A DNA stretch of 64,000 nt from Acidimicrobiaceae bacterium (GTDB lineage Bacteria; Actinomycetota; Acidimicrobiia; Acidimicrobiales; Aldehydirespiratoraceae): positions 2,640 to 66,639 of the forward strand of contig VXYK01000039.1 of assembly GCA_009845995.1 (NCBI GenBank), in the 5' to 3' direction. Positions within the stretch are counted from its first letter, which is position 1; every line of letters starts with the position of its first letter. Both the position numbers and the translations under genes were made by a program. Under the pieces are notes generated by a model. The model was not told the DNA's origin. It saw nothing but the letters and a program-made list of their open reading frames with translations, and did no database searches. Shown piece after piece: positions 20,173 to 44,400 of this stretch.

Positions 20173-20213
20173 TTGTTACTCCCTCTATGACTCTCCCGAA
20201 CCTCGCGGTCGGC

Positions 20214-20498: not shown

Positions 20499-20562
20499 CA
20501 CAGCTCCTAGGACTTCGATTCGTGCTGGTTTCACGACAGGACGCGCAAAACCGGCGCGGTCT

Positions 20563-20654
20563 GAGTTTATCGGAGCACGCGAGTTTATCGAAGCAAAGGG
20601 ACCGCTCTACGCGCGATCACTTCGAGACGATCACTCCGGGGTGATCACTTCGAG
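20563..20654. repeat. Two pairs of 12-bp direct repeats: GAGTTTATCG[G/A]A x2 and GATCACTTCGAG x2, plus a GATCACTCC half copy
   Basis: Read directly at 20563-20574 and 20581-20592, and at 20615-20626, 20629-20637 and 20643-20654. The region lies between the tatA 3' end and the start of the 94 aa gene. Confidence 0.6.
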
Positions 20655-20827
20655 GGAGTGGACTCCTCGTCGTCCGCGCCCTCTGACAATCCGGACTTGA
20701 ACTCTTTTTGTGCCTGACCGAGCGAGCGGGCCAATTTCGGGAGTTTGGCTCCACCAAACACGATCAAGACAATGACGAGAACGATGATCAACTCGGAGGC
20801 GGACGGGGTGGAAATCAGACCGTACAT
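20645..20827 (-). CDS. tatA: Twin-arginine translocase subunit TatA/E
   Basis: 60 aa. ELIIVLVIVLIVFGGAKLPKLARSLGQAQKEFKSG is the canonical TatA TM plus amphipathic helix. Confidence 0.85.
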   Translation of the reverse strand: MYGLISTPSASELIIVLVIVLIVFGGAKLPKLARSLGQAQKEFKSGLSEGADDEESTPSK

Positions 20828-21383: not shown

Positions 21384-23423
21384 TCAGCGCCTTGAACGGA
21401 CGATGCTGCGCCGATTATCGACGAAATCGTGAAGCACGTAGTTGCCGAGATCTTGGTTGGTCGTGAAGAAGGCGCGGCCACCGTTCAACCGGGAAATCTC
21501 CGACACGAAGTCCCGCAAGTACGGAGTCACATCCAACACGAAGGTATTGATGCGGATGTCTTCGCGGGTGCACCTCACCACTTCGGCAAGCGTTAAATCG
21601 ACCGTGGTGCGTGACGGCGGATAATTGAAGTACGGCTGGCCGGACTTGGTGATGTGCGCGGTCGGCTCGCCATCGGTGATCATGATGATCTGCTTGGTCC
21701 CGGTCTGCCGCGCCAGCAACTTGCGCGCCAGTTGAAAGCTGTGCTGCATGTTGGTGCCGTACACGTAGTCCCAAGACAGCTGCGGCAACGTGTTGGCATT
21801 GAACTCTCGCGCTACTTCCGAAAACGACACCATGCCGAGAAAGTCACGAGGGTACTGAGCCGAGATCAACGAGTGCAGCGCCATGGTCACCTTCTTGGCC
21901 GGCAGGAAGTTGTCCCGCATCGCCATCGACATCGACACATCAAGCATCAACACCGTTGCCGAACGGACCTGCTGTTCGGTCCGTTCGATCTCAAAGTCAT
22001 CAGGGTGCAGGCGAACCGGGACACCGCCACCGGTGCGAGATATAGCGTTGCGCAGCGTCTGCGGTATGTCGAGATTGAAAGCGTCGCCGTATTCATAGGG
22101 CTTCGTTTCATACTCTCGTTCGTGACCCAAGCCCGCCTCTGAGAGCGAGTGTCGACCCATCATGTCGTCGGACATGCGCTTGAAAATCTCTACTAGGGCA
22201 CCGTTGCCGATCTTGCGAATGGCTCGTGGAGTGAGTTCGTAGCGACCCTCAGAATTCTCGATGAGACCGGCCTCTTCCAACATGCGGGCCAACTCCGCCA
22301 TCCGTTCGAGACTCTCAGCTGACTCATCACCGAGCAGGTCGCGGGCACGGTCGATATCGACTTCGGCCAAAGCTCCAGGGTTGTTCGCTCCACGCAGGAG
22401 ATTGTCGAGCTGATCGATGTCGCCGAGCTCACCCATCATGTCCATCGCTGAAGACATATCGAGTGGGTCGGAGCCCTCGAAGTCGTAGGATTGGCTCCAA
22501 CCCATCTGCGGGAACTGCTCGCGGAGGTTGCCCGCAAGCTGGTCCATCTGCCAGCGCAGATCCATGTCCTCCATGAGCTGATCGCTCAAAGCCTGAAGCT
22601 GCGCGCGTTGCTCGGGTGACATGGAATTCATCATTTGTTGAGCTTGAGCCATCCGCTGTGCCATCACTTCGAGCAACTCGTCGAGCGTTCTCGGGTTTTC
22701 TGGAAAGAAATCGCCGTAGCGCTCCATGAAACCGTCGAAGTCGGGAACCTCACCATTGGCGCGCTGTTCGAGCATATGGTTGAGTTCAGCCAACATGTCC
22801 TTCAAGCGGGCCATGTCCTCAGAGGTCATGTCGTTGACGCCCTGGGCCATCTGATCGAGTTGTTGTTGCATGAGCTGCTCACGCAGTCGATCCATGAGTT
22901 CCTCAAATTGCTGCTGTGCCCGTTGGCTTTCGAACTCATAGCTCTGGAGGCCTTTGACCTTGCCGGCGAGGTCCGGCGGAAGCATGTCAAGCTCCATGTT
23001 CTTCATCGTCGCCGAGTCGTTGGCAAGCTCTGAACGCCTTTCGTCACCTGACTCGCTCGCCGAGTCAACCATGTCTTGCAAGGCTCTGCGCTCGGTGTCG
23101 ACAACTTCGTTGAGCGCGTCGGAAATCTCGTCGAAAACACCTCCGAGGTCGTGCTGGTCAAGGATTTCTCGGCGCCGGTCACGGAGTCGATCGAGCATCT
23201 CGCGGATGCCTTTCATGTGGCGTCCGTCTCGGTCCGTCATTCCGCCCTGCATGATCCGCCGCAGTGCACTGTTGACATCGCCGTGATACAGCAAGTCGTC
23301 AGCCAGCTCGTCAAAGAGACGATCAGCGTTGATATCGAACCCGCTCTGTGTGCCATCCCATGCCGAGTAGCGGAAGTGCGGCGGCCTGCGACGATTGCGG
23401 CGACGACGCCGACGGAGAACCAT
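21384..23423 (-). CDS. von Willebrand factor A (vWA) domain protein, the usual partner of a ChlI/MoxR-like AAA+ ATPase
   Basis: C-terminal MIDAS-type VLMLDVSMSMAMRDN ... KQIIMITDGEPTAH. Long helical, acidic N-terminal two-thirds. Confidence 0.7.
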   Translation of the reverse strand: MVLRRRRRRNRRRPPHFRYSAWDGTQSGFDINADRLFDELADDLLYHGDVNSALRRIMQGGMTDRDGRHMKGIREMLDRLRDRRREILDQHDLGGVFDEISDALNEVVDTERRALQDMVDSASESGDERRSELANDSATMKNMELDMLPPDLAGKVKGLQSYEFESQRAQQQFEELMDRLREQLMQQQLDQMAQGVNDMTSEDMARLKDMLAELNHMLEQRANGEVPDFDGFMERYGDFFPENPRTLDELLEVMAQRMAQAQQMMNSMSPEQRAQLQALSDQLMEDMDLRWQMDQLAGNLREQFPQMGWSQSYDFEGSDPLDMSSAMDMMGELGDIDQLDNLLRGANNPGALAEVDIDRARDLLGDESAESLERMAELARMLEEAGLIENSEGRYELTPRAIRKIGNGALVEIFKRMSDDMMGRHSLSEAGLGHEREYETKPYEYGDAFNLDIPQTLRNAISRTGGGVPVRLHPDDFEIERTEQQVRSATVLMLDVSMSMAMRDNFLPAKKVTMALHSLISAQYPRDFLGMVSFSEVAREFNANTLPQLSWDYVYGTNMQHSFQLARKLLARQTGTKQIIMITDGEPTAHITKSGQPYFNYPPSRTTVDLTLAEVVRCTREDIRINTFVLDVTPYLRDFVSEISRLNGGRAFFTTNQDLGNYVLHDFVDNRRSIVRSRR

Positions 23424-23553
23424 GGCGAAACCCTAACCCGTCGTCGCTTGCGCCGATGACTTCCGCATCGGATCCCCACAGCCCGTGCGGAGACCGGTTT
23501 GCACGGCTCCGACTACGCCCGGTGACGACAACTCTTGTTAACGTTGGCTAACA

Positions 23554-24183
23554 ATGAGTGAGGGAACTGTCGCTGAAACAGCTGAACCACCGACCCATGC
23601 CGACGAACCGAGCCGTCGACCTCCCAATCGAAGGGCGTTGATACTCGAAGCGGCGATTCAGCTGTTTCATGAACGGGGCTATCCCGCAACCAGCGTTGAC
23701 GACATCGGCAGTGCGGTTGACGTGAGCGGGCCCGCCATATACCGCCATTTCTCATCCAAAGAAGAAATCCTGATCGAGGCCATGATCCTCGCCGCCGACG
23801 AAGTCCACCAAGCAATCCAGGCCACGCAAGCAACCGAAGGCAACGGCGAACCGCTGCTTGAGCGCTATGTCAGCGCCTACGTGCGAACGGCGATGCGTCG
23901 CTCGGCACTCATCGCGGTGTGGACCAGTGAAGCCCGTCACCTCTCGGCGCAGCGCCGCTCCCCCATGTCGAGACGGCTGCGAGCCTGGATAAACGACTGG
24001 GCCGCCGTGCTGGCCTCAGTTCGGCCAGAGCTGACCAAAGATCAAGCCCACCTGCTGGTAACAGCCACTATCGGCATGATCACATCGGTCGCTACCACCG
24101 CCCGAGTCGATTGGCAAACTCAAGACCGACTAACAACCATTGCGATGGCGACGCTCCACGCGCCCATCGAACAAACCCAGTAA
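23554..24183 (+). CDS. TetR-family transcriptional regulator
   Basis: RRALILEAAIQLFHERGYPATSVDDIGSAVDVSGPAIYRHFSSKEEIL. Confidence 0.85.
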   Translation: MSEGTVAETAEPPTHADEPSRRPPNRRALILEAAIQLFHERGYPATSVDDIGSAVDVSGPAIYRHFSSKEEILIEAMILAADEVHQAIQATQATEGNGEPLLERYVSAYVRTAMRRSALIAVWTSEARHLSAQRRSPMSRRLRAWINDWAAVLASVRPELTKDQAHLLVTATIGMITSVATTARVDWQTQDRLTTIAMATLHAPIEQTQ

Positions 24184-24197
24184 CAGGAGAAACAGCA

Positions 24198-25037
24198 ATG
24201 CCCATCGACCCCGAAGCCGTCGGCAATACCAGCGAACCAGCGGACATAACCTGGTCATCAAGCGACAGCCTGCTCTACGCGCTCGGCGTCGGCGCGGGGA
24301 TGACCGACCCGACCGGCTTCGAGTTGGAATTCACCACCGAAAACACCAAGGACGTGCAACAACTTGCGCTACCCACCCAAGCCGTGGTGATGGGCGCCGG
24401 CAAAATGCCTAAATTCGGTGACTACAACCTCGCTGCCCTGCTGCACGGAGAACAGGAAATCGAGCTGCACCAAACCCTTCCCGCGGAAGGCTCGGGTATC
24501 GGCACCGGCAAAGTCGCAGCCATCTACGACAAGGGCAAAGCCGCTCTGGTGCGTCTCGAAACCACCGTCACCGATTCCTCGGGGGCACCGCTTTGGACCA
24601 GCCGTTCGGGGTTGTTCATCTCCGGCGAAGGAGGCTGGGGCGGTGACCGAGGTACGGCCAGCGACTGGGCTCTGCCCGAGCGCGATGCCGACACGGTGAT
24701 CGGTTACGACACCCGCACCGACCAGGCCCTGTTGTATCGCCTCAACGGCGACCGGAACCCACTGCACAGCGACCCGTCTTTCGCCGGGATGGCCGGCTTC
24801 GACAAACCGATCCTGCATGGACTCTGCACCTTTGGTTTCACCGGGAGGGCGCTGCTGCACGGACGCTGTGACGGCGACACGAGCCGCTTCGGGTCGATGG
24901 GCGGGCGCTTCAAGTCTCCGGTCATTCCCGGCGAGCGTCTCGACGTCCACATGTGGGATGTGAACGGTCAGACCCTGTTCCAAACCCGGGTCGGTGACCG
25001 AGTGGTCTTCGACGCCGGCGTCTTCACCCTCCGCTGA
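24198..25037 (+). CDS. MaoC-like (R)-specific enoyl-CoA hydratase/dehydratase (double hot-dog)
   Basis: Hydratase-2 motif YRLNGDRNPLHSDPSFAGMAGFDKPILHG. AGGAGA RBS before ATG 24198. Confidence 0.8.
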   Translation: MPIDPEAVGNTSEPADITWSSSDSLLYALGVGAGMTDPTGFELEFTTENTKDVQQLALPTQAVVMGAGKMPKFGDYNLAALLHGEQEIELHQTLPAEGSGIGTGKVAAIYDKGKAALVRLETTVTDSSGAPLWTSRSGLFISGEGGWGGDRGTASDWALPERDADTVIGYDTRTDQALLYRLNGDRNPLHSDPSFAGMAGFDKPILHGLCTFGFTGRALLHGRCDGDTSRFGSMGGRFKSPVIPGERLDVHMWDVNGQTLFQTRVGDRVVFDAGVFTLR

Positions 25038-25073
25038 GGTACTCAGCCAACGTACTCAGGTAACGTCAGGCCG

Positions 25074-26441
25074 ATGTATGTTCCCGCGCCTGAACACACC
25101 GGGCAGATCATCGCGTGGCTCGAGCGCGAACTGGGCGGAAAGGTCGTAGGGATCAAACAACAGCCGCGCTGGCGTCCAGTGTGGTTCGCTGACCTTGAGC
25201 GTGATGGTGAGACGCTGGAACTGTGTGTGCGAGCCGAGCGTGCCGACATGCCCTTGATCTTTCCGCTCGAGCACGAGATGCGTTTCCAATCGTTGCTGCA
25301 GGAGCGGGGCATTCCAGTCGCTGCGGTCCATGGAATGATCGATACACCGTATGCCTATGTGATGGACCGAGTCAGCGGGCAGGAACACTTTCCCGACACG
25401 CCCGACGACGAGCGTGCAGCGGCGGTCGACGACTACATCGGTCACCTCGCCAGGCTTCACGCCCTCGACCCCGAGCCGTTCGCGGCCGCCGGAATCACCC
25501 GAGCCAAGAACCCTGCCGCGTCGGGCACCGTGGGCCTGGCGCGCTACGAGGAGGTCTACCGATCCCAGAAGATGCACCCGGATCCCTTCCTGGAGTTCTG
25601 CCTCGGTTGGCTGCGCCGCAACCCGCCCGACTCCAAGGGGCGTGAGGCCCCCATCGTGTGGGACTCGGGTCAGTTTCATCACGCGGAGGGCAAGATCGTG
25701 GCCTTGCTCGATCTGGAGATCGCCCACATCGGCGACCCGATGATGGATCTCGCCGCTTGGCGGATGCGCGACACCATCGTCGGCTACGGCGACATGGGAA
25801 AGCTGTATGCCCGCTACGAGGAGTTGCGAGGCGAACCGATCGATCTCGACGCGATCCAGCACCACCACTTCGTCTTCACGCTCACCAACCAACTGGCGTT
25901 CAGCGCTGCTATCAAGGACCCGCCGCCCACCTCGGATCTCATGACGAACCTGCAATGGTGTTACGAGACCAACCTCTTCGCCACCGAAGCACTCGCCGAG
26001 ATGCTCAAGATCGAGCTGCCCGAAGTTGAGACGCCTGAGCCGGCGCGTTCGCAGGGCACAGCGGGACACCGCCACCTGGTGGGCATGCTGCGCTCGCAGC
26101 AGATCGACGACGCGGTGCAGCGTCACCAGATCCGCACCGCGTTCCGGCTGGCCCGTCACCTTGCCCGCATTGACGAGGTCGGTGACGCCACCGAGCAGGC
26201 CAACCTCGACGACCTGCATCTCCTGCTTGGGCACAGACCCGCCGACTGGCAGGAGGGAGAAGCCGAACTCGAACGTTTCGTGCTCGCCAACGCCGACACC
26301 AGTGTTCACGACGAGGAGCTTGTGAGGCTGTTTCACCGCCGCAATCTGCGCGCCCACATGCTTTTGGGACCGCCCGGCTCGGCGATGACCCAGCATCACC
26401 AGATCCAAAAGTTCGCCACCGATCCCGAGGGTGCAGAATAA
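25074..26441 (+). CDS. Phosphotransferase (APH/choline-kinase-like) family protein
   Basis: IVWDSGQFHHAEGKIVALLDLEIAHIGDPMMDLAAW (Brenner/APH-type catalytic region). The 477 aa ORF on the opposite strand is judged a shadow ORF. Confidence 0.7.
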   Translation: MYVPAPEHTGQIIAWLERELGGKVVGIKQQPRWRPVWFADLERDGETLELCVRAERADMPLIFPLEHEMRFQSLLQERGIPVAAVHGMIDTPYAYVMDRVSGQEHFPDTPDDERAAAVDDYIGHLARLHALDPEPFAAAGITRAKNPAASGTVGLARYEEVYRSQKMHPDPFLEFCLGWLRRNPPDSKGREAPIVWDSGQFHHAEGKIVALLDLEIAHIGDPMMDLAAWRMRDTIVGYGDMGKLYARYEELRGEPIDLDAIQHHHFVFTLTNQLAFSAAIKDPPPTSDLMTNLQWCYETNLFATEALAEMLKIELPEVETPEPARSQGTAGHRHLVGMLRSQQIDDAVQRHQIRTAFRLARHLARIDEVGDATEQANLDDLHLLLGHRPADWQEGEAELERFVLANADTSVHDEELVRLFHRRNLRAHMLLGPPGSAMTQHHQIQKFATDPEGAE

Positions 26442-26470
26442 CCAGAGGTGCGAATAAGCAGAGGTGCACA

Positions 26471-27580
26471 ATGAACAGCCAGAATCCATCGGTCGCCGCT
26501 TGGCGCGAATTCTGTGAGGCGATGGCCGACGCCGGAGAATTGGTGCTCGGTCCCGAAGTGCCCGACAACCCGAATGTCCAGGCTGAGGGGATTCGAGCGC
26601 TGAGCCGCTACCTCACGTTCGCATTGGAACGGTGCCTCGAGCGGGGAGACCCGACCCGACCCGCCTTCGTCGACGTTCAAACCCCGATCCGAAAATATAT
26701 GGGCGACAACCCTGATCAGACCTATTTTTCTGCCGTGGTGAGCGGCGATCGGACCTATCGCATCAGAGCTTCCGCCGCCCGAACAGTGGCGGTCGAGATC
26801 GGCGTGTACGCCGGGGACTTCGGAGCCAACAGCGGAGGTAGGCGACTGGTCAGCGCTGTTGAGGACACCTCTTTGCGCCTCGACGCTGACGGCAACTACG
26901 AACTCCTGTTGACCCCAGACCCAGACCCCGCCGATCCCAACCAACTGCTGCTGGATCCCGATTCCTCCTCAGTGCTGATCCGCACATACTTCACTGATCT
27001 GCATGTCCGTCTGGCTCACCGGGCACCGACGATTGAAGCGATTCCAGCGCCTGAACCCACACCCATGCTCACACCCGAGCACCTGAAACAGAAACTTGAA
27101 ATCGCCGCGTTGCATGCCGTCGGTTCGTTCCGGTGGTGGGGGCAGTTCAGCTCTCAAGGGCATAAATTCGCGCCAGTCAACACCTTCGCCCCGCTACCCG
27201 ACGAAGGCGACATACACACCCCCGAGAATGTGCGATATTTCTCCGGTGACTGGCAACTGGCACCAGACGAGGCACTGGTGATCGACTTCGATCCTTCAGC
27301 CGGCGCCGACTACTGGGGAGTGGTCCTGATAACTCACTGGGGTGAGACCGTCGACTGGTTGACCCGCCCGACCGTCATCAACAAAGAGACTGCGGCGCGT
27401 CGCCAGGACGGATCAGTGCGTATCGTCGTGGCACACGAGGACCCCGGGGTCCCCAACTGGCTCGACACCGCCGGCCACCCCTCCGGATCTCTGAGCCTGC
27501 GCTGGTTCCGCTCCGATGCTCCACTGCCGACCGCGCAGTCGCGAGTTGTGCCGGTGGGCCAAGCGGCTGCACTCGATTAG
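26471..27580 (+). CDS. Hypothetical protein (possibly DUF1214-type)
   Basis: 369 aa with coding-like composition. KYMGDNPDQTYF resembles DUF1214 proteins as I remember them. Function not supported further. Confidence 0.45.
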   Translation: MNSQNPSVAAWREFCEAMADAGELVLGPEVPDNPNVQAEGIRALSRYLTFALERCLERGDPTRPAFVDVQTPIRKYMGDNPDQTYFSAVVSGDRTYRIRASAARTVAVEIGVYAGDFGANSGGRRLVSAVEDTSLRLDADGNYELLLTPDPDPADPNQLLLDPDSSSVLIRTYFTDLHVRLAHRAPTIEAIPAPEPTPMLTPEHLKQKLEIAALHAVGSFRWWGQFSSQGHKFAPVNTFAPLPDEGDIHTPENVRYFSGDWQLAPDEALVIDFDPSAGADYWGVVLITHWGETVDWLTRPTVINKETAARRQDGSVRIVVAHEDPGVPNWLDTAGHPSGSLSLRWFRSDAPLPTAQSRVVPVGQAAALD

Positions 27581-27621
27581 CCGGGCTTGAATTGAGTCGC
27601 CTCCCAACCGGGGCGAACCCC

Positions 27622-28038
27622 TTAGGGACGGACTGCAAAAGCTTGGCGCCGGTGGGGGCCGTAGCGGTATATGCGAAAGTCGATATCCAAGGCGAGGGCG
27701 TCAGTGATGGCCAGACGTTCCATCAGGGCCCAACTGATGCGGTCGGTAAGGCTGAACTCCTGGTCGCCAAAGTCAATCAGGACTGCAGCAGCGGCCTCAA
27801 GATCGGCACTGGTAGCACATTCGACCCGAGCAACGCTGGCGACTGCGGCAACGACGCTATTGGCGGTGTAGTGGTCTGTGCGCGCATTTACGAGGTTCCA
27901 CAGTTCTGCGAGCACCAAGTCGCTGGTGATCAGCGCGCCAGATTGTTCTGTGAGGAGCAGCCGCGCCAACTCGCTGTGGGCATCGCCGTCGGCGGCTGCT
28001 GCATACCAAATGCTGGTGTCCACAAACGCTGGCGGCAC
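27622..28038 (-). CDS. vapC: PIN-domain toxin (VapC-like)
   Basis: Acidic PIN residues in FVDTS, LAEL, SLTDRIS and ALDIDF. 3 nt downstream of an RHH antitoxin gene. Confidence 0.75.
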   Translation of the reverse strand: MPPAFVDTSIWYAAAADGDAHSELARLLLTEQSGALITSDLVLAELWNLVNARTDHYTANSVVAAVASVARVECATSADLEAAAAVLIDFGDQEFSLTDRISWALMERLAITDALALDIDFRIYRYGPHRRQAFAVRP

Positions 28039-28041
28039 GGT

Positions 28042-28290
28042 CTAGAGTCCCTTGGCCGCGAATTGCTTGTCGATCGCCTCACTGATCATCGCCTGCTTCC
28101 CGTCGGCTATTCTCGAACCTTCACTGTCGAAGAGTCCGAAGACCACCGACGGGTCTTTTGGGGCTTCGCCTTGTTGTAGGTCACGAGCCACCAGTCCACG
28201 GATGTACTCCGACAAAGAGATGCCCTGGGAAGTCGCTTTGCGCTTGGCTTCGGCATGGTGGTGGTCGGGAAGCAGGATCATCGTTCTCAT
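28042..28290 (-). CDS. vapB: Ribbon-helix-helix antitoxin (VapB-like)
   Basis: MRTMILLPDHHHAEAKRKATSQGISLSEYIRGLVARDL. Confidence 0.7.
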   Translation of the reverse strand: MRTMILLPDHHHAEAKRKATSQGISLSEYIRGLVARDLQQGEAPKDPSVVFGLFDSEGSRIADGKQAMISEAIDKQFAAKGL

Positions 28291-28423
28291 GGTTCGTGTA
28301 GCATAACAGGCATAGCATTACTTATGCCATCAATGACTTCGGCGTCACAGTCCAAGGCCGCACGGACAACTGTTTGCGCCTCTCTATGCAGACGACCGCC
28401 GCATCGGGGAGATCGTGGTCGCA

Positions 28424-28846
28424 CTACAACGGGTTCTCCCAGCGGACTTCGCCGAACCGTCCGAAGTCGGTGTCGGCGCTCATGATCGTCAAGCCGTGCT
28501 CAACGGCGAGCGCGGCCAGCATCGCATCGGGGACCAGGTTGGCAGTCACCCCGTGTCGGACGATCAGGCCTCCGAAGATCGTCACTGTCCTCTGAGTCGC
28601 CGGAGGAATCCAACACACCTCCGCGTCGACCCACGCCTGAACGCAGGCCCACGCTTGGTCGGGATTCAACGGGTGCGCGTTGATGCGGGGATTCGTGACA
28701 ATGCGGACGAACGCGCCGAGCGTCTGCCACGGCAAACCGACCCGGCTGTTCCCTCTCAGCACTCCGACCAGCCACTCCTCGGCCCGTGTGTTGTGGACCG
28801 AAGACCTGTCCACGGCATACAACAGGAGATTCGCGTCAACCAGCAC
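28424..28846 (-). CDS. vapC: PIN-domain toxin (VapC, mycobacterial-type)
   Basis: MLVDANLLLYAVD ... LVPDAMLAALAVEHGLTIMSADTDFGRF. Confidence 0.8.
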   Translation of the reverse strand: MLVDANLLLYAVDRSSVHNTRAEEWLVGVLRGNSRVGLPWQTLGAFVRIVTNPRINAHPLNPDQAWACVQAWVDAEVCWIPPATQRTVTIFGGLIVRHGVTANLVPDAMLAALAVEHGLTIMSADTDFGRFGEVRWENPL

Positions 28847-28849
28847 GGG

Positions 28850-29074
28850 TCAGTCAAGCTCGTCAAGCAGCGCGAGGACCTCACCGATGTTGCTGACATC
28901 AATCTTCATCCCCACATCGAAGCTCAGGTGTTCGTATTGAGGAGTAGTCGCACGCTCGGCGAGACCCTTTCGCACGAGCCGGTTGACAGCTTCGCTGACA
29001 CCGACGTTCGCAGTTCTGCGGACCTCATCGACAGCGGCTGCCACATCATCAGCCAAGGTCACGGTGGTACGCAT
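28850..29074 (-). CDS. vapB: Ribbon-helix-helix (CopG-like) antitoxin (VapB-like)
   Basis: MRTTVTLADDVAAAVDEVRRTANVGVSEAVNRLVRKGL. 3-nt gap to the PIN gene. Confidence 0.7.
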   Translation of the reverse strand: MRTTVTLADDVAAAVDEVRRTANVGVSEAVNRLVRKGLAERATTPQYEHLSFDVGMKIDVSNIGEVLALLDELD

Positions 29075-29111
29075 GGCCCAAGACTAGCATCACTATGCAG
29101 TGATAACAACA

Positions 29112-30491
29112 TCATGACGCTCTAGCTGCGAGGGCCGGCACCAGCGCGGACAGCGCCGCTGCGTAGCCCAACGGCGCAGCGACTGCATCTCCTATCCATT
29201 TCGCAAGCTGGGCCCTCGTAGGTGTAGTGTCGGGACTGGGTCGAAAGAAGTAGCTGTCCGGAAAGCCCTGCAGTCGAGCTGCTTCGGCCGCGGTGAGCGT
29301 TCGGCGCTCCGTGGGATGCACGAAGCGACCTCGCCCCGGGGTCATGAAGCCGGTCGTGATCGTGGGCGCGGGTCGATCGCCGTGCATGCGTCCGTAAACC
29401 GCCCCATAGCTGGTTCCTTCTTGGTGGCATTCCGGCCGCTCAGCGAGCGCCAAGTCATGCTCGTCGTTGTCAAACAGCCAGGCGATCCGCTCGCGTGTCA
29501 CTTCGGTGAACTCGGGGAAGTCGTGCATGGCCGGGTCGTCGGACAATGACTGACCACCACAGATTGCCCACTCCACCGAACGAGCTCGCTCTTGGGCCAG
29601 CATGTCGCGCACCTCGGCCAGAGGTATCGGTCCCGAACGGCCGGGGGCGTCGAAACGGCGAGCGATCAAAAAATGACGTCGCCGGGTCTGAGGCCAGCCC
29701 ATCTCATCCGCAGCCAGGACGCCTTCTGTCACCTCGTAGCCGTTGGCAATCAACAGCGCCGTGGCGGTAGCAACCACGTCCGCCCCGTCGTGAACCACGG
29801 AGGTGACGTTTTCGATGGCGACACTTCGAGCTCGACAAGCAACGGCGAACGCCGGTACATCCAGGTACAGGAGGTTGCGGCGGTCGGTTCGTCGGGAGCG
29901 GTTGTTCAGATTCGAATGGCCCTGACAAGGCGGGCCCGCGGTCAGCAAGTCGATGTCTTCACACCCTGAAGACAGCCCGTCGTCAAGGATCTCGGGCGGA
30001 TACACGAACTCCGCGTCCGTACCCGATCCACGAATCCGGTAGTCAACCAGCGAGGTCACGGAAGCCGCAACGGTCCGGCGAGTTCCATGGTTGCGCCGAT
30101 GCACTTCCAGTGCGTCGGCGTCGATGTCAACGGCCAACTCGCAGCGTTGCTCCGCGCCTGCTTCAACAGCCAGTTGCCCCGTGCCGACCAAGAATCCACC
30201 GATTCCGCTGAACAGGTCCGCGACCCGAAGCACCAACTTCTCATCGGGCCGCCTAAAGAGTCCGGCAGACGGCATGGTTCCTTGCATGAGCGCTAGCCAC
30301 CAAGCACCCATGGGGTCCGCCCGAACCGAACCACCGTTCATCGAAGCTGACTCTTCAAGGGTTACATGCGAACGAATCTCCCCCGAACCAATCGCCACAG
30401 AACGCACCAACTGGTCGCCGTCAAAGAGAGTGACCGAACGCGCCGAGCCGTTACCCAACGTTGCCGAGTCGGCCACGTTTCCGAGACTCAC
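29112..30491 (-). CDS. DNA (cytosine-5)-methyltransferase
   Basis: Motif I VADLFSGIGGF, motif IV LTAGPPCQGHS, motif VI AIENV, motif VIII QTRRRHFLIA, motif IX/X AARLQGFPDSY ... GDAVAAPL. The GTG 30491 start gives about a 95 aa N-terminal extension, and internal ATGs are possible starts. Confidence 0.9.
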   Translation of the reverse strand: MSLGNVADSATLGNGSARSVTLFDGDQLVRSVAIGSGEIRSHVTLEESASMNGGSVRADPMGAWWLALMQGTMPSAGLFRRPDEKLVLRVADLFSGIGGFLVGTGQLAVEAGAEQRCELAVDIDADALEVHRRNHGTRRTVAASVTSLVDYRIRGSGTDAEFVYPPEILDDGLSSGCEDIDLLTAGPPCQGHSNLNNRSRRTDRRNLLYLDVPAFAVACRARSVAIENVTSVVHDGADVVATATALLIANGYEVTEGVLAADEMGWPQTRRRHFLIARRFDAPGRSGPIPLAEVRDMLAQERARSVEWAICGGQSLSDDPAMHDFPEFTEVTRERIAWLFDNDEHDLALAERPECHQEGTSYGAVYGRMHGDRPAPTITTGFMTPGRGRFVHPTERRTLTAAEAARLQGFPDSYFFRPSPDTTPTRAQLAKWIGDAVAAPLGYAAALSALVPALAARAS

Positions 30492-30576
30492 GCCGCTTTC
30501 CTCTCAAATCGCATCTCCACGATCATCAGTTGAGCACGCCGCGGTGACATCGGGCCAACCGATCCATCGTCGTTGC

Positions 30577-31083
30577 TCACCGGAGTTGCCGCTCCCATAG
30601 TTCTTCGACCAGCGCGTCAGCGGCTTCGTCGTCAAGCATGGCGGGTAAAAGATTTTGCAGCGTGCGGTTCAGTTGCTTGGCGAACTCTCGCAGCGGAGTA
30701 GTCGCCAACCGAGTGGACTCCTCCGCTTGGCGGCGAGCCATCGCCCGCACGATCCCAGGATGCTCCCCGGCCTTCACTCGCAGGATGTGACTGCGCCAGA
30801 AATCGGTGCTGCCCTCGGCCCTGAAGGCCAAGTCGAGTTCTTGACCTCCGAGCACGTTGACCCTCAGCCACATTCGCGACGGTACGCACTCATGAAACCT
30901 GCGTCCGTCGATATAGACCGCGAACTTCCGACCCGGGGAACTGACGGGCTCTCCTGAGGCCTCAGGTCTCGGAAACAGTGTGCCGTGTTCGCGCCAAACC
31001 GCGAAGTTCCACAGGTGCGCGATAGCCAGATGGCACCAGAAGTCGGGATCGTCAAGCATCGCAACGTCGGCCCCCCCCGTCAC
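30577..31083 (-). CDS. Hypothetical protein (160-168 aa), member of the candidate operon
   Basis: Start at GTG 31083 or ATG 31059 (MLDDPDFWCHLAIAHLWNFAVWREHG...). GC3-rich coding look. Overlaps the upstream ORF stop by 8-32 nt. No motif recognised. Confidence 0.55.
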   Translation of the reverse strand: MTGGADVAMLDDPDFWCHLAIAHLWNFAVWREHGTLFPRPEASGEPVSSPGRKFAVYIDGRRFHECVPSRMWLRVNVLGGQELDLAFRAEGSTDFWRSHILRVKAGEHPGIVRAMARRQAEESTRLATTPLREFAKQLNRTLQNLLPAMLDDEAADALVEELWERQLR

Positions 31084-31387
31084 TCATCGCTCGGTGCAGC
31101 ACCAACGAAGCCTTGCCTTCAATGTTGTCCTTGCGCGCACCACTGAGGTCGGCCGGATGCGAGTAGATCAGTTCCTCAATCTCGCGTCGCGCCTCTGCCA
31201 GTACTTCGTCGGGGAACTCATCGCCTTCACCGCTCCAGTGTTCCTTGCCATTCAAGTCGTCCTGCAATGCGTCGACGACGGCCGAAGCAACAGGTTGTCC
31301 GGTCTGATCGAGTCCGGCGCGCAACCGAGCGATCCGGCGCTCCGAGATCTCAAGGGCCTCAGCACGCGTAAGTGTCAGATACCTCAC
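31052..31387 (-). CDS. Hypothetical protein (111 aa), member of the candidate operon
   Basis: GTG 31387 overlaps the stop of the upstream 74 aa ORF (GTGA). Helical, acidic sequence (RAEALEISERRIARLRAGLDQ...EVLAEARREIEELIYSHP). No motif recognised. Confidence 0.5.
   Translation of the reverse strand: MRYLTLTRAEALEISERRIARLRAGLDQTGQPVASAVVDALQDDLNGKEHWSGEGDEFPDEVLAEARREIEELIYSHPADLSGARKDNIEGKASLVLHRAMSDGGGRRCDA
31071..31078. repeat. C8/G8 homopolymer tract at the junction of two overlapping ORFs
   Basis: Read directly: gtcgg cccccccc gtcac. On the coding (minus) strand it reads GAC GGG GGG GGC, five codons before the stop of the 111 aa ORF. Confidence 0.9.
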
Positions 31388-31608
31388 GTTGTCGCCCTGA
31401 GCATTTTGTTGACCCTCTCACGCAGGCCGATAACGTCCTCAGCCCGCGCTACGACGTAGGTCGGCCGATCCCGGCAGTCGCGAAGCATGCGATCTCGCGT
31501 TTCGACACCTGGCGCGACCAGCTGCACGACCTTGCCGATGATCGAGTCCTTGACGTCGTCGTAGGAAGCAGAGATACTGTTGCCCGAGACCCTCGCGTAC
31601 TCGAACAC
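31384..31608 (-). CDS. Hypothetical small protein (74 aa), member of the candidate operon
   Basis: GTG start 33 nt after the upstream stop. Codons are strongly GC3-biased (TTC GAG TAC GCG ... GTC AAG GAC TCG ATC ATC GGC AAG GTC GTG CAG CTG). Confidence 0.45.
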   Translation of the reverse strand: MFEYARVSGNSISASYDDVKDSIIGKVVQLVAPGVETRDRMLRDCRDRPTYVVARAEDVIGLRERVNKMLRATT

Positions 31609-31641
31609 TACGGCGCTAACGAAGTCCAGGAGGAGTTGCTG

Positions 31642-32385
31642 CTAGAACCACACAGCTGCCTTGGACGCGCTGTTCGCGTTGAGCGCCGCCAACGTTTCCT
31701 CATCGACCAACACGTCGACATCGGGCGTGCCTTCGATCACCTCCGCCAAGTCTTGACCTCCGAGGTCGATGAAGCGGAGGGTTCCCTGGGGGAGTCCGAA
31801 TTCTTCTCTCTTGGCCTCGGTCAACGGTCGCGGCCGGAACAGCACAGCGCTAGAGGCGCGTGCGTCAAGTCGGAACGTCGCCCGGGCGAGCCAGGAGCTC
31901 GACCGCTTCGGCAGTCTCCGCTCGGCCAACGTGCCGGATGTCCAGTCCGGCGACAACGCCACGTACGCGTCGATCACGGCACCGTGGCTTCCAGCGCAGA
32001 ACACCGGCGTACGATCTCCGTTCGGACGCCGATCGAGGCGAGTGCACCGTTCGAGATCTTCGAGCCTCTCAAGCCCATGATCAACGAGCTTCTCAGCGAG
32101 CTTGAGGCTGCCAGATCTGGCCACGACCACCAGGCGAAGCCACCGGGGATGGACCCCGATCTCCAGAGCCGCGTTGGTCAACTTCGTCCGGAATCGGTCG
32201 AAGTCGCCCTCGGCCGCCCAAACAAGCCGCACTTCACGTCGGACAAATGTGCCGTCATCAACAGTAAGGCTTGACCCGGCCCGGCAGGGAAGGTCGTCGT
32301 CAAGCAGTACCTCGGTCTCACTCAGCGAAGAACTCAGAGCCGAACCTACGGTGTAGGGACGAACCGTTCGCTTCTCGCGACTCAT
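31642..32385 (-). CDS. Hypothetical protein (247 aa), member of the candidate operon
   Basis: ATG 32385 overlaps the GHKL ORF stop (ATGA). No motif recognised. The plus-strand 300 aa ORF opposite is judged a shadow. Confidence 0.6.
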   Translation of the reverse strand: MSREKRTVRPYTVGSALSSSLSETEVLLDDDLPCRAGSSLTVDDGTFVRREVRLVWAAEGDFDRFRTKLTNAALEIGVHPRWLRLVVVARSGSLKLAEKLVDHGLERLEDLERCTRLDRRPNGDRTPVFCAGSHGAVIDAYVALSPDWTSGTLAERRLPKRSSSWLARATFRLDARASSAVLFRPRPLTEAKREEFGLPQGTLRFIDLGGQDLAEVIEGTPDVDVLVDEETLAALNANSASKAAVWF

Positions 32386-34391
32386 GGGTCGCGCCTAGTG
32401 AAACCGGATCTTTGTTCGGCTCCTGCCGACACGAAGTCCGCGTCGACGGTGAGTTCGACTGTCCAATCAGGTTCATACGGCTCGCAGCTGTACTCGAACA
32501 CAACTTCTTGACCTGCTTCGAGACGTCCCATGAAAATGTCGGGTCTCTCGGGGTCCCGGCCAAATCCTCGAGGGGCGTCGATCTCGATCTCCAGCAAATC
32601 CGAGCGGCGGTCCTCAGCGACAAAGCCGCATCGGATCGCCACCTCAACCTCATCACGGGGGTCAACCACATGATCGTGGTGCGCGCTGAAACCGATTTTC
32701 GCCGTTCCGCTGAGTTCAAGCCGACCATCGGGAGCTTCGGTGAGCCGTTGGCCCGGTTCAATTGTGAAGGGCCGCGGACCAGCCTGCGGTGGCGACTGCC
32801 TACCGCGGGCCAATCCGCGCAGCAGCAGACGCATGAGACGATCCCATTCGGGCAGGCGTAGCTGGTCGGCATCGGGAGTCCGTGGCCTGATGCTGCGGCT
32901 GAACTGGGCGACGTGATCCTTGATCCGATCCAGGACAAATCTCGCGACCGCGGTGTCCTCGGGCCGGACATCGGAACCGTCACTGGTTGACTCCCAAGCG
33001 TCGTGCAGTTTCGGCTCGGTCTGCCGCAGCGCTTCGTTGACCGCTTCGTCCGCAACGAAGACTCCGCGAATGTGCGGAGCTTTCTTCCGGGCCTCGAAGT
33101 GCTCCACGACCATGCGCGGCGATCGCACGAGTGCTACGAGGCTGCGATGCTCAACCTCGTCGTCATCTAGATCATCCGGGTCGTCCGGTGCCGGCTGCGA
33201 CCAGCCCGGCAGTTCGGTGACCAGACCTAGATCCCCGACCTTTTTGTTACCGGCGTGAGGACCCAGCTCATGCTTGCGGGCATTGTCCCGTTTGGCGTCC
33301 TGAGAGGTCGTCGCCACCTGATAGGCATCGATGAACGGGCGCAGATTCGGGTTTGACTTCGGACGCGGGACAAGTCCCCCCGCAGTTTCCGGCGCGGTCT
33401 CGTTGACGATGCTCACGTCGAACTGCAGTTCACCGCCGTCCTCCAAGGCCGGCCACCAATAGCGTTCAACGGCACGTTTGAGGTCAGCCGGATCCACCGT
33501 CGGACAAACCAACAGCATCGTCGTGCCGATCTGTTCCGGGTACTCCGCGGAGCGCAGTTCCAACCCTAGACCGGCCGCTAGTTCGTCAGCCTCCCCGTCT
33601 TCCGCGGGGACGATCTCGTCCCGGCTACCGCGTTCGGAACCGTAGTGCGCCCAGCCCTCATGGTGCTTACCATCAACTTCGTGCGGTCCCCAGTAGGTCA
33701 TGCCGAGAAGACGGCGCGTCACGAAATTGTCTTCAGCCAAACCGCCGAAGCACGAGTAGGCGATCACGGTTCGGATGGCGGACGCACGGATCAGGCCGGC
33801 CTTGCCGTAGCCGAAGGAGCCGCCCCGCCCATCGGAGGCCGGGGTGAATCCGGTGCTGCACATCGCCAGCCAGAGTTTCGACTGCTGGGTACCCCAACCA
33901 CCGCCCATACCTCCCCCGCCGGACTCTTTGACCTCCAAGAGACGCAGGTCTCCACCTCGGCTGAGTTCGGCAAAGCAGTCGCTCTCGGCTAGGCCGATAT
34001 GTCGCCTGTCTTCAACCCGCGCAGCCCGATCTTCAAGTTCATCCAAACCGAAGCGGTTGATCAGCGCGTCGGCTTCATCACCGTCGACATCGAAGAAGCG
34101 GAAGCGGATCTCAAAAGGCAGCCGCTCTTCAGGTGCTTGCGACCTTCGACGTTCCATCGCCGCGTCCCAGGCATTCTGTATCGCTTCGCGGGCCAGCAGT
34201 GCAGCGTCGGGAGGGATCGCATCCGCGGAAAAGAACCCGGGTGCCTTCACCTCTTCGTTTCGGAAGACCTTCGCCAAGTCGCCACTGGCACCGAACGTGG
34301 TGGCATTGACCACAGGCCACGACCATCTAGGTGAACGCATCGCCGGGAGTGTAGGCGATTTGGACCACTCGGTTGCCAGCCGCGGATCCAC
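32382..34391 (-). CDS. GHKL (Bergerat-fold, MORC/Hsp90-like) ATPase-domain protein with a long uncharacterised C-terminal region
   Basis: N-box LLAREAIQNAWDA, a Gly-rich block LLEVKESGGGGMGGGWG (G1-like, with E in place of D), and a G2-like RGGSFGYGKAG. About 420 further residues carry no motif I recognise. The start is either GTG 34391 (abutting the tag stop) or ATG 34340. Confidence 0.7.
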   Translation of the reverse strand: MDPRLATEWSKSPTLPAMRSPRWSWPVVNATTFGASGDLAKVFRNEEVKAPGFFSADAIPPDAALLAREAIQNAWDAAMERRRSQAPEERLPFEIRFRFFDVDGDEADALINRFGLDELEDRAARVEDRRHIGLAESDCFAELSRGGDLRLLEVKESGGGGMGGGWGTQQSKLWLAMCSTGFTPASDGRGGSFGYGKAGLIRASAIRTVIAYSCFGGLAEDNFVTRRLLGMTYWGPHEVDGKHHEGWAHYGSERGSRDEIVPAEDGEADELAAGLGLELRSAEYPEQIGTTMLLVCPTVDPADLKRAVERYWWPALEDGGELQFDVSIVNETAPETAGGLVPRPKSNPNLRPFIDAYQVATTSQDAKRDNARKHELGPHAGNKKVGDLGLVTELPGWSQPAPDDPDDLDDDEVEHRSLVALVRSPRMVVEHFEARKKAPHIRGVFVADEAVNEALRQTEPKLHDAWESTSDGSDVRPEDTAVARFVLDRIKDHVAQFSRSIRPRTPDADQLRLPEWDRLMRLLLRGLARGRQSPPQAGPRPFTIEPGQRLTEAPDGRLELSGTAKIGFSAHHDHVVDPRDEVEVAIRCGFVAEDRRSDLLEIEIDAPRGFGRDPERPDIFMGRLEAGQEVVFEYSCEPYEPDWTVELTVDADFVSAGAEQRSGFTRRDP

Positions 34392-35057
34392 TCATTTCCG
34401 CGCTTCTTGGCGCAGGGACTCGATGGCGGGGCGGCGGTGACAACCCTCAAGATGATCGTTCACAATGCCGGCCGCTTGCATCAGGGCGTAGCAGGTGGTG
34501 GGTCCCACAAAGCGCCAGCCCTGCTTCTTGAGCGCTTTGCTCATCGCGGTTGACTCAGCGGTTGTCGCCATGGCTGACACGGTGGCGTGATCGATCCGCG
34601 CCGGGCGGACCACAGAATCCGGCTCGAAACTCCAAAAAAACGCGGCCAGGCTGCCGTGCGTCTGCACAGTGTCCAAGGCCGCGCGGGCGTTGTTGATCGT
34701 CGCTTCGATCTTTCCCCGATGGCGGACGATGCCTGCATCGCCGAGCAGTCGATCCACATCGGACGCACCAAAGCGGGCCACCTGCTCGAAGTCGAAGCCA
34801 CAGAAAGCGGCTCGGAAGTTCTCTCGTTTGCGGAGGATCGTCAACCAGGAAAGACCCGACTGGAAGCCTTCGAGGCACATCTTCTCGTACAGCCGCACAT
34901 CGTCTGTGACCGGTACACCCCACTCCTGGTCGTGGTATGCCGAGTAGTCGTCGTGCCCCTCCCCCCACCAGCAAGCCAAGGTCGCATCGACCCGCCGCAG
35001 TAGACCGGCAGGAGCTCCGCCATCGGAGTCATCGGTGCCATTGGCGTCATCGGCCAC
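34392..35057 (-). CDS. tag: DNA-3-methyladenine glycosylase I
   Basis: CWWGEGHDDYSAYHDQEWGVPVTDDVRLYEKMCLEGFQSGLSWLTILRKRENFRAAFCGFD ... is the Tag signature. GTG start 22 nt after the AAA+ gene stop. Confidence 0.85.
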   Translation of the reverse strand: MADDANGTDDSDGGAPAGLLRRVDATLACWWGEGHDDYSAYHDQEWGVPVTDDVRLYEKMCLEGFQSGLSWLTILRKRENFRAAFCGFDFEQVARFGASDVDRLLGDAGIVRHRGKIEATINNARAALDTVQTHGSLAAFFWSFEPDSVVRPARIDHATVSAMATTAESTAMSKALKKQGWRFVGPTTCYALMQAAGIVNDHLEGCHRRPAIESLRQEARK

Positions 35058-35079
35058 AACCGAACTCCCGCCGAATCGC

Positions 35080-36504
35080 TCAACCGCGGCTGCGGAATTG
35101 GGATTTGGCGCCCTGACCGTCTTTGTTGAGCCGCTTCAGCAGGTGAAGACCCTCGAGGATCAACTCAGTAGCACTGGCCACCAGCGCTGGAGATTCAGCT
35201 TGATCCTCATCAGACAACAGCGCCTGCACCGGGGGAACAAGAGCCGGAATCTGCTCCAGCATCGCCGTATATGCCTCGTCGGTGACATCTTCCCCCGTGT
35301 CGACTACGAGGTCCCCCTCAAACGCCTCGACCACACCAAGATGCGTGTCAGGCGGCACTCGCTCTTTGAACACCGCGAGCACCGCGGCGCGCACCAGATT
35401 GTGAAGAATCTCGCCATCGCGCCCCTCATCGAGAGTTTCCATCTCGACTTTCCCCGAAGTCGACGCGGGGAGCGCTTCAAGATCGACTATGCGCGGCACT
35501 ACGTGACTGCCACCGGCACGCAAGGTGCGCCGCACCGCGTTGGCCACCATGATCTCCTCGTTGGCGATCGAGAGCCGCACTGACACACCTGAACGTTGCG
35601 AGATGTGCTGGCTGGCCCGGGCCGCGTGAGTCAGGGTCGCCACGATCTCACTCATGAACGACGGGACCGATACCTCGATATCGGTGGCGAAGGCAACATC
35701 GGCCTCTTGTTCAACGATCGCCATCTCAGTGTCGACATCGAGGGGGTAGTGGGTGCGAATCTGAGAACCGAAGCGATCCTTCAGCGGGGTGATGATCCGG
35801 CCTCGATTCGTGTAATCCTCCGGATTCGCTGAGGCAACGAGCACCACGTCAAGGGGAAGCCTGACCTTGTGACCGCGGATCTGTACGTCCCTCTCTTCCA
35901 GCACGTTGAGCAGGCCAACTTGAATGCGCTCGGCTAGGTCGGGCAGCTCGTTCATCGCGAAGATCCCACGGTTGGTGCGCGGTACAAGGCCGTAGTGGAT
36001 TGTGAGTTCGTCGGAGAGATAGCGGCCCTCCGCCACCCGGATCGGATCCACCTCGCCGATGAGATCAGCGATGGAGGTGTCTGGAGTGGCCAGCTTCTCT
36101 CCTAGGCGATCATCACGGTGGACCCACGAAATAGGCGTGTCGTCGCCGTGCTCTTCGATCAGATCACGGGCATGGCGCGAGATGGGATTGTAAGGATCGT
36201 CGTTGATCTCCGATCCCGCAACGATCGGCATCCATTCGTCGAGAAGGTTGCTGAGGCCGCGAATCATGCGAGTCTTGGCCTGCCCCCGTTCCCCCAAGAA
36301 GATGATGTCGTGACCGGCAATCAGGGCATTGGAAAGCTGAGGGTTGACCGTGTTGTCATAGCCGATCACCTCGCTGAACAGCGGGTCGCCGCTGCGTATG
36401 CGCTTGACGGTGTTGTTTCGCAGTTCTTGACGGACAGGGATCGACTCCCATCCGCTCTTACGAAGCGCCCCCAGGGTCTCGGGTCTCGTCTCTGGTCTCG
36501 ACAT
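35080..36504 (-). CDS. AAA+ ATPase of the ChlI/MoxR-like ('magnesium chelatase-like') type
   Basis: Walker A FLGERGQAKT, Walker B and sensor region GIFAMNELPDLAERIQVGLLNVLEERDVQIRGHKV, and VLVASANPEDYTNRGRIITPLKDRF. Confidence 0.8.
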   Translation of the reverse strand: MSRPETRPETLGALRKSGWESIPVRQELRNNTVKRIRSGDPLFSEVIGYDNTVNPQLSNALIAGHDIIFLGERGQAKTRMIRGLSNLLDEWMPIVAGSEINDDPYNPISRHARDLIEEHGDDTPISWVHRDDRLGEKLATPDTSIADLIGEVDPIRVAEGRYLSDELTIHYGLVPRTNRGIFAMNELPDLAERIQVGLLNVLEERDVQIRGHKVRLPLDVVLVASANPEDYTNRGRIITPLKDRFGSQIRTHYPLDVDTEMAIVEQEADVAFATDIEVSVPSFMSEIVATLTHAARASQHISQRSGVSVRLSIANEEIMVANAVRRTLRAGGSHVVPRIVDLEALPASTSGKVEMETLDEGRDGEILHNLVRAAVLAVFKERVPPDTHLGVVEAFEGDLVVDTGEDVTDEAYTAMLEQIPALVPPVQALLSDEDQAESPALVASATELILEGLHLLKRLNKDGQGAKSQFRSRG

Positions 36505-44194: not shown

Positions 44195-44195
44195 A

Positions 44196-44399: not shown

Positions 44400-44400
44400 G

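Follow-up and report, generated by a model that had tools for sequence, protein, structure and literature searches.

Integrase-free hotspots for defence and toxin–antitoxin (TA) genes, lying between conserved core genes, are a known kind of bacterial defence island, and phase-variable restriction-modification (R-M) genes with homopolymeric tracts are known in Neisseria, Haemophilus and Helicobacter. GHKL ATPases of the MORC/paraMORC group have been placed in predicted R-M operons together with Dcm, Vsr, Z1 and AIPR genes (Iyer, Abhiman & Aravind 2008, PMC2292703). We analyzed a 64-kb stretch of contig VXYK01000039.1 from an Acidimicrobiaceae bacterium (hereafter, the window; GC 60.5%, zero Ns), in which 11,656 bp lie between an AAA+ ATPase gene and a vWA gene, both on the minus strand. 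The original prediction took this whole interval as one block of accessory DNA splitting an operon. Our results make it probable that the gap is instead layered and long-lived, consisting of an old resident layer and a newer 6.8-kb insert that carries a methylase-linked four-gene cassette and two VapBC pairs.

The gene map is based on a listing of open reading frames (ORFs) and on Pfam, NCBIfam and PADLOC scans. It confirmed the positions of the AAA+ and vWA genes and all of the content predicted between them, namely tag, a GHKL-to-methyltransferase run, two vapBC pairs and an oppositely oriented TetR-MaoC-kinase block. The predicted count of 15 genes holds for ORFs; there are 13 genes, because the second and third genes of the cassette (g2 and g3) are each split in two ORFs. 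Relatives were collected by searching one genome per species with the AAA+ protein, which found 568, and synteny was read from the best 80 loci. These best 80 of the 568 are all metagenome-assembled genomes (MAGs) of Acidimicrobiales/Actinomycetota, the nearest being sponge-associated bins. The window thus comes from a sponge symbiont of the Acidimicrobiales; a mycobacterial source was rejected, since every close relative belongs to that order. Homologues of the g1 cassette protein carry the name "Candidatus Poriferisodalis", and the MAGs are of the "Ca. Poriferisodalis"/Aldehydirespiratoraceae-like kind. Our literature searches found no published work on DUF6339, PDC-M33, Poriferisodalis or Rv0958 with Rv0959.

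The AAA+ and vWA genes form an old synteny block, in which both point the same way and the gap between them has been persistently plastic; an adjacent operon is not their normal state in this order. In 55 of the 80 loci, the AAA+ gene is followed on the same strand, within 10 kb, by a vWA gene, so that the predicted operon-like pair survives as a syntenic one; the two genes are adjacent in only 2 of the 55 (L052 and L057), where their ORFs overlap. The gap measures ~0.3–0.9 kb in ten loci and 1–5 kb in most, with a median of ~2 kb. It reaches 9 kb in L080 and is at least 10 kb, with the vWA gene out of view, in six more loci. Across the order, both its length (from −29 nt up to 9 kb or more) and its content vary. 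The commonest residents among the 80 loci are a GH1-like glycosidase (~30), MaoC with or without TetR (15) and a cyclase-like gene (11). Such genes lie mostly on the strand opposite to the pair and are of metabolic, regulatory or housekeeping type rather than mobile or defence cargo. Since opposite-strand genes usually separate the pair in the Acidimicrobiales, the AAA+ and vWA genes are not co-transcribed. Downstream of the vWA gene, genes for the polyphosphate kinase PPK1 and a ROK-family kinase (window 17120–20172) are kept in this place in many of the 80 loci, and they therefore mark a stable right-hand flank of the synteny block.

Could the whole 11.7 kb be a single acquired island that split an ancestral AAA+/vWA operon? 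The overlap of the two genes in L052 and L057 makes ancestral adjacency plausible, and the gap content differs between lineages; however, the genes at both ends of the window's gap are found at the same place in its relatives. The tag gene follows the AAA+ gene in L001–L008 and is a resident of this 92–97% clade. In L004, L005, L007 and L008, tblastn and blastn gave the order AAA+, tag, (DUF1214), APH, MaoC, TetR and vWA, with a gap of 3.9–4.8 kb, and L006 holds a shorter form of this layout; the AAA+ identity of L004–L008 to the window is 92–95%. Furthermore, MaoC-TetR adjoining the vWA gene persists in the remoter relatives L010–L021 at about 72–82% identity. Because the block is orthologous in L004–L008 and MaoC-TetR extends to L010–L021, these genes are residents and not accessory DNA. 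Thus, ~4.8 kb of the gap is old resident DNA, vertically inherited in a family-level clade. Together with the native composition of the interval and with a gap that is filled in 53 of the 55 loci, mostly by GH1-like, MaoC and cyclase-like genes, this leaves very little credence for a single island. What stands of the predicted island-like interval is that the gap varies and that the 6.8-kb segment within it is present or absent among relatives, while tag and TetR-MaoC-APH-DUF1214 are conserved. Both outcomes that the original prediction had named as refuting it were observed in part: 5 of the 15 ORFs recur in close relatives, with all of them present in the 99.9%-identical assemblies, and adjacency of the pair is not the rule in this lineage. 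A gap in a conserved pair can consist mostly of old residents with a small recent insert, so that gap size alone overstates the accessory content.

The layered reading is carried by the boundaries of the insert, which contains the GHKL-to-methylase run and both VapBC pairs and sits where the tag and DUF1214 genes converge. The blastn homology to L004–L008 ends at window position 34420/34430, within the last ~10 codons of tag, and restarts at 27581, at the DUF1214 stop. The empty site is 12 bp long in L007 and 22 bp in L004, and the 3′ ends of tag and DUF1214 overlap there. The Tag protein ends in AIESLRQEARK* in the window versus EIEEMRALVERGDLA* in the empty-site genomes, which shows that the insertion replaced the last ~10 codons of tag; the GTG start of the first cassette gene (g1) abuts the tag stop codon. 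The insert or its remnants are present in the window, L001, L002 and L003, and the site is cleanly empty in L004–L008. In a neighbor-joining tree of GH2 and AAA+ DNA, the four carriers form one clade in 200 of 200 bootstraps, and the sister clades (L004, L005, L008) and (L006, L007), as well as the outgroups, are without the insert. The parsimonious reading is a single gain in the ancestor of the four-species clade. As for the same gap in L001, an extra 1.2 kb without Pfam matches (12163–13282) lies between tag and g1, and a Fic/DOC-family gene with a helix-turn-helix (19582–20748) follows a DUF1214 remnant at the position of the window's APH-MaoC-TetR; these point to further turnover at this gap.

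The insert shows none of the usual marks of a mobile island. No integrase or transposase domain was found in any ORF of the 23.4–35.1 kb interval, in which all ORFs were assigned, and there are no tRNA genes in the 64-kb window. No repeat pairs span the boundaries at 27.58 and 34.42 kb, no att-like repeats were found around the insert, and at most a 6-bp ATCGAG is shared near both junctions. The original prediction had noted that integrase, tRNA and flanking repeats were missing, as our domain, tRNA and repeat searches confirm. It had also proposed that skewed composition and degenerate att-like repeats in the flanks be looked for, and neither turned up. The insert has no compositional anomaly (GC 0.60–0.64 and GC3 0.64–0.82, like its flanks), with tetranucleotide z values of −1.5 to +0.9 over 21–37 kb. 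A promoter and terminator scan was uninformative, the counts being those of shuffled sequence. We therefore rejected a classical integrase/tRNA/att genomic island, for which the presence or absence of the segment among relatives is the only feature observed. The insert would most likely have entered by homologous or illegitimate recombination with the DNA of a related symbiont, without a dedicated recombinase.

The cassette consists of g1, g2, a DUF6339-like g3 and a C5 cytosine methyltransferase gene (dcm; g4), in this order. The label "GHKL" in the original prediction is borne out for g1 by invariant motifs and by its predicted fold. The motifs ExxxNxxD, GxxGMxG and GGxxGxGK of the Bergerat fold are invariant in 53 sequences of the family and correspond in g1 to residues E69, N73 and D76; G161, M162 and G164; and G190, G191, G194, G196 and K197. 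The AlphaFold2 model of g1 (predicted local distance difference test score, pLDDT, 84.9) shows a GHKL domain, a middle domain and a C-terminal β-sandwich. Its best Foldseek matches are topoisomerase VI-B (1e-7) and TRAP1/Hsp90 (~1e-6), over a range of 1e-7 to 5e-6. The alignments to Hsp90/TRAP1 span ~490 columns (N-terminal and middle domains) with a TM of ~0.3, and there is no explicit S5 match. Judged from motifs and modelled fold, g1 is thus a predicted GHKL ATPase, even though Pfam gave no match to it. NCBIfam matched none of g1–g3, and sequence-profile searches of the PDB with g1 and g2 gave nothing significant.

The two middle genes are more obscure. The intact g2 orthologue in L002 has 334 aa, and the AlphaFold2 model of an intact homologue (P0121) reached a pLDDT of 88.2. 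Foldseek found nothing below E 0.01 for g2 (best PDB match E 0.012; best BFVD match E 0.027), so that, on the strength of the model, g2 appears to be a confidently predicted protein with no detectable structural relative in the PDB or BFVD. For g3, homologues are listed under DUF6339 (PF19866) in precomputed tables, and our hmmscan gave only 11.6–17 bits versus a gathering cut-off of 23.2. Neither g2 nor g3 gave a hit in Pfam, NCBIfam or PDB sequences, or in PADLOC, which was also searched with intact orthologues. The Dcm translation, on the other hand, shows the motifs FSGIGG, PPCQ, ENV and QTRRR.

The family is large. A word-indexed search found at least 536 homologues of g1, and with an exhaustive profile search the representative clusters numbered 607 at E ≤ 1e-30, 1947 at E ≤ 1e-10 and 3464 at E ≤ 1e-3; none of these clusters has a Pfam domain or a name. 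We observed the same gene order, with overlapping gene boundaries, in eight cassettes at other sites (L081, L082, L083, L088, L089, L092, L093 and L095), in which g1 has ~630–655 aa, g2 ~326–342 aa and g3 ~236–274 aa, followed by Dcm. The methylase gene thus comes after g3 both in the insert and in each of these eight cassettes. The cassettes of L088, L089 and L090 lie downstream of a Dyp peroxidase gene, elsewhere on the chromosome (in L090, g1 and the beginning of g2 are all that is visible), and those of L092 and L093 lie in defence-type surroundings with Vsr, GmrSD and restriction endonuclease (REase) genes. Beside its cassette, L083 carries a second cluster (1086–8831, minus strand) of Z1, DUF4420, a 604-aa GHKL-like protein, a 101-aa ORF and a 432-aa DUF6339 protein; the GHKL-like protein matches PDC-M33A at 5.5e-10 and is 24% identical to g1. 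As this is a second association of GHKL with DUF6339, the two may form a reusable two-gene core.

These distributions also bear on a different role, in which the cassette would be an epigenetic or DNA-repair module (Dcm with a MutL/MORC-like GHKL protein) doing housekeeping work and its placement by tag would be functional. The GHKL family includes the repair protein MutL (PMC2292703), no nuclease was found in the cassette, and g1 begins directly at the tag stop. Nevertheless, the cassette occurs at unrelated sites without tag, and tag occurs without the cassette in L004–L008. That the cassette is patchily distributed, has been inactivated repeatedly and has Vsr, GmrSD, REase and TA genes as neighbours also speaks against a housekeeping role, which we regard as distinctly unlikely.

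In the window, two of the four cassette genes are interrupted. In g2, a TAG codon at 31642–31644 stands in place of CAG (Gln) in L001 and L002, and a single tblastn high-scoring segment pair (HSP) spans the stop. In g3, a +1 frameshift falls in a G8 run; tblastn gives two HSPs in different frames, and the gene is in a single frame in L001, L002, L088 and L089. Three assemblies of the window strain from other samples (L085, L086 and L087) are 99.93–99.95% identical to the window with 0 gaps over 11–22 kb; the TAG is found in all three, and the G8 run in L085 and L086. The g1 gene has its own tract, a G6 run aligned with the corresponding runs of L001, L002 and L090. This tract is G10 in L001, G13 in L002 and G9 in L090 and L091, all out of frame, and G5 or interrupted, in frame, in L088 and L089. 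In L002, a run in dcm has in addition gone from C5 to C6, which shifts the frame. L003 has lost 4.1 kb reaching from g1 to dcm, and CCGGAA microhomology is seen where the deletion ends meet; in L088, an ISL3 element interrupts dcm. Each of the four species that carry the insert at this site therefore bears a different lesion. Since several of these lie in poly-G/C, the cassette is either decaying or switched by hypermutable G/C runs.

Artefacts of assembly or sequencing, with a cassette that is intact in vivo, are very unlikely to explain the stop codon and frameshifts. All the frameshifts do fall in G/C homopolymers, a known error class, and L001 is part of a chromosome-level MAG whose read type is not known. 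Yet the amber is a substitution (CAG to TAG) that recurs in L085, L086 and L087 from different samples, the L090 and L091 assemblies both have G9, and no other gene of the window has a homopolymer break.

The choice between decay and switching is closer. If the poly-G/C runs are contingency tracts, the cassette would be switched reversibly by slipped-strand mispairing, and this genome would have been caught in the OFF state rather than in decay. The length of an intragenic homopolymer does vary between strains and set the reading frame: the same g1 site would be ON at G5 or when interrupted (L088 and L089) and at G6 (the window), and OFF at G9, G10 and G13, a series that favours hypermutable switching. 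No homopolymer in the 64-kb window other than the G8 run of g3 reaches a length of 8, and the G10 and G13 runs are each the sole run of at least 7 in their own locus. The non-redundant loci and the window (1.52 Mb) contain nine G/C runs of at least 8; cassettes account for ~3% of this DNA and for four of these runs. The 11.5-kb contig of L087 ends exactly at the g3 tract (window 31079), which would be expected if tract length were heterogeneous in that sample and may hint at it. In L082, C15 and C14 runs (5019–5033 and 19726–19739) are placed at the 5′ ends of two genes for putative secreted proteins, immediately before the coding sequence or within its first codons; one product has a signal-peptide-like N terminus. 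Other loci of these Acidimicrobiia genomes thus seem to have poly-G/C contingency tracts as well. Against switching, the amber in g2, the 4.1-kb deletion in L003 and the ISL3 insertion in L088 are irreversible and therefore favour plain decay, every long tract observed is OFF, and homopolymer sequencing errors may contribute. Taken together, reversible switching is a possibility that we hold only tentatively. The association of lesions with G/C runs makes phase variation in uncultured sponge symbionts checkable from reads. As a separate observation, the cassette is mosaic when compared with L001 and L002: g1, g2 and the N-terminal part of g3 are 60–89% identical, the C-terminal part of g3 and dcm are 93–96% identical, and the flanks are 85–93% identical. 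The break in sliding identity is sharp, near 31.0–31.25 kb, and points to alleles having been exchanged, or diversified by selection, in the 5′ half of the cassette.

How would such a cassette work? In the layered reading, it would be a methylation-based self/non-self system of the restriction-modification kind. Dcm would mark the host DNA, and the GHKL ATPase together with g2 and g3 would act on DNA that lacks the mark, as an ATP-driven DNA clamp or effector. With an amber codon in g2 and a +1 shift in g3, and with the methylase and GHKL genes intact, the effector side appears from the reading frames to be off in this genome; the present state would be "methylase on, effector off". The VapBC pairs, as addiction modules, would stabilise the insert. 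A more far-reaching proposal is that GHKL, g2, the DUF6339-like protein and Dcm form a new type of methylation-linked immunity or DNA silencing without a canonical nuclease or helicase, widespread in uncultured Actinomycetota and, in sponge symbionts, toggled by poly-G tracts in the effector genes while the methylase stays on. This is speculative, and we consider it rather unlikely.

The two VapBC pairs each have a PIN toxin gene tightly behind a small antitoxin ORF, with spacers of 3 nt, and the PIN toxins score 40.1 and 40.9 bits. VapB1 is just above its RHH_1 cut-off, and VapB2 gives weak RHH/HicB-like matches only. Pair 2 is present in L003 and absent from L002. At the Dyp peroxidase locus of L089, just after dcm, we observed a VapC1-like remnant (15463–15603; 53% identity over 47 aa), which hints that the cassette and VapBC1 travel together. 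From this remnant and from the presence of the cassette at other sites, such as the Dyp peroxidase locus, it follows that the cassette moves between sites, possibly with VapBC1.

Several points weigh against our reading of the insert and its cassette. The defence function is proposed from gene context and analogy, and neither Pfam, PADLOC and NCBIfam searches with g1–g3 nor PDB and Foldseek searches with g1 and g2 revealed an effector domain such as a nuclease or helicase. Loss of the insert in two sister clades could produce the same distribution as one gain, and recombination, the most likely route of insertion, is argued indirectly. Three of the cassette tracts share one site in g1, and the enrichment statistic is weaker for it, since they may descend from one ancestral tract. 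Sequencing is prone to errors in long G runs, and the population-level support for the homopolymer calls is limited, as the samples of L085, L086 and L087 are related and L094 duplicates L002; being identical in sequence, L094 is not an independent assembly of the L002 tract.

Table 1. Features of the AAA+/vWA gap, with positions in the window
Feature	Position	Strand	Basis
AAA+ ATPase, distant ChlI/MoxR-like; upstream partner	35080–36504	−	Pfam Mg_chelatase 5.7e-6, AAA_5 8e-6
tag, 3-methyladenine DNA glycosylase I	34392–35057	−	Adenine_glyco 2e-71
Species-variable insert, ~6.8 kb, at convergent tag/DUF1214 3′ ends	~27582–34420		blastn boundaries
g1, predicted GHKL (Bergerat-fold) ATPase, 669 aa, intact	32382–34391	−	motifs and fold
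G6 run in g1 (coding strand), in frame	33376–33381	−	aligned with L001, L002, L090
g2, ~333 codons, split into a 247-aa ORF (31642–32385) and a 74-aa ORF (31384–31608)	31384–32385	−	tblastn
g3, DUF6339-like, ~269 aa if intact; 111-aa ORF (31052–31387) and 168-aa ORF (30577–31083)	30577–31387	−	tblastn
G8 run at the g3 frameshift (C8 on the plus strand)	31071–31078	−	only homopolymer ≥8 in the window
g4, dcm, C5 cytosine DNA methyltransferase, intact	29112–30491	−	DNA_methylase 4.9e-33; PADLOC DruM 6.9e-74
VapBC pair 1: RHH antitoxin (28850–29074), PIN toxin (28424–28846)	28424–29074	−	RHH_1 20.9 bits vs 20.5; PIN 6.6e-10
VapBC pair 2: small antitoxin-like ORF (28042–28290), PIN toxin (27622–28038)	27622–28290	−	PIN 3.8e-10
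DUF1214 protein	26471–27580	+	Pfam
APH-family kinase	25074–26441	+	Pfam
MaoC dehydratase	~24198–25037	+	Pfam
TetR	23554–24183	+	Pfam
vWA protein, Rv0959-like; downstream partner	21384–23423	−	VWA_2 27.9 bits vs cut-off 27

Two further regions of the window lie outside the gap. A Pbe-like defence module (39799–46985, plus strand) comprises a 719-aa protein, a PbeA helicase (PADLOC 1.6e-186), a 67-aa ORF, a PbeC/DndD-like SMC ATPase (2e-68) and a 158-aa ORF. Its region has a low GC of 0.556–0.585 and tetranucleotide z values of up to 2.6; L004, L005 and L008 do not have the module, and L003 has only a divergent allele (22–45% identity) at the equivalent place. The strongest tetranucleotide deviation of the window (z 3.9 and 2.3) is found at 59001–63000, with genes at GC3 0.81–0.84.

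With respect to described systems, the counterpart of the AAA+/vWA pair would be Rv0958/Rv0959 of M. tuberculosis, which the original prediction gave as an example of such pairs being adjacent in many actinobacterial genomes. Homology of the vWA protein to Rv0959 is indicated because precomputed Pfam assignments add the families Rv0959_3rd and Mb0984_helical. The AAA+ protein is distantly ChlI/MoxR-like; we rejected its identification as a true ChlI, given an NCBIfam BchI-ChlI score of 44 bits versus a cut-off of 467. Unlike an AAA+/vWA operon pair, the genes in the Acidimicrobiales are usually split by opposite-strand genes. The locus resembles integrase-free defence/TA hotspots in that variable methylase-linked and VapBC cargo lies between conserved flanks and differs in content among relatives, and in that the Pbe-like module, a second variable defence module, is nearby, but the gap content across the order is mostly metabolic or regulatory, and the insert has no compositional signal. 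As an island, the locus is therefore ordinary.

The cassette is moderately interesting, as an uncharacterised variant of GHKL-associated, methylase-linked systems. It is well delimited, belongs to a large unannotated family, has intact examples (such as L089, 10001–15309) and, except for a partial match, stands outside the catalogues of defence systems. This match is to PDC-M33 of PADLOC: the N-terminal ~140 residues of g1, the ATP-binding part, match PDC-M33A at 2e-8, as do g1 homologues. Membership was rejected, as only positions 33–169 of the 627 of the PDC-M33A profile are aligned and no other PDC-M33 component was matched. Druantia type II was likewise rejected, because DruE, DruF and DruG are absent despite the match of Dcm to DruM. 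With phase-variable R-M genes, the cassette shares a poly-G tract in the coding sequence of a methylase-linked system, whose length at the same site differs by strain and would set ON or OFF; it differs from them in that the tracts sit in non-methylase genes and coexist with irreversible lesions.

The closest described analogues of the cassette are the MORC/paraMORC GHKL ATPases (PMC2292703). Both have a GHKL ATPase with intact ATP motifs in a tight operon with a cytosine methylase, and both are patchily distributed, which hints at lateral mobility. The neighbourhood of the cassette often includes Vsr and other R-M genes, and the Z1, DUF4420, GHKL-like and DUF6339 cluster of L083 adds to the likeness. 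On the other hand, the cassette has no superfamily II helicase or recognisable nuclease of the restriction endonuclease fold, HNH or HKD kind, its partners are g2, which has no structural relative, and the DUF6339-like g3, and g1 matches no Pfam GHKL model. Furthermore, g1 ends in a β-sandwich, and none of its Foldseek matches is explicitly to the S5 fold, which follows the GHKL domain in the MORC/paraMORC proteins.

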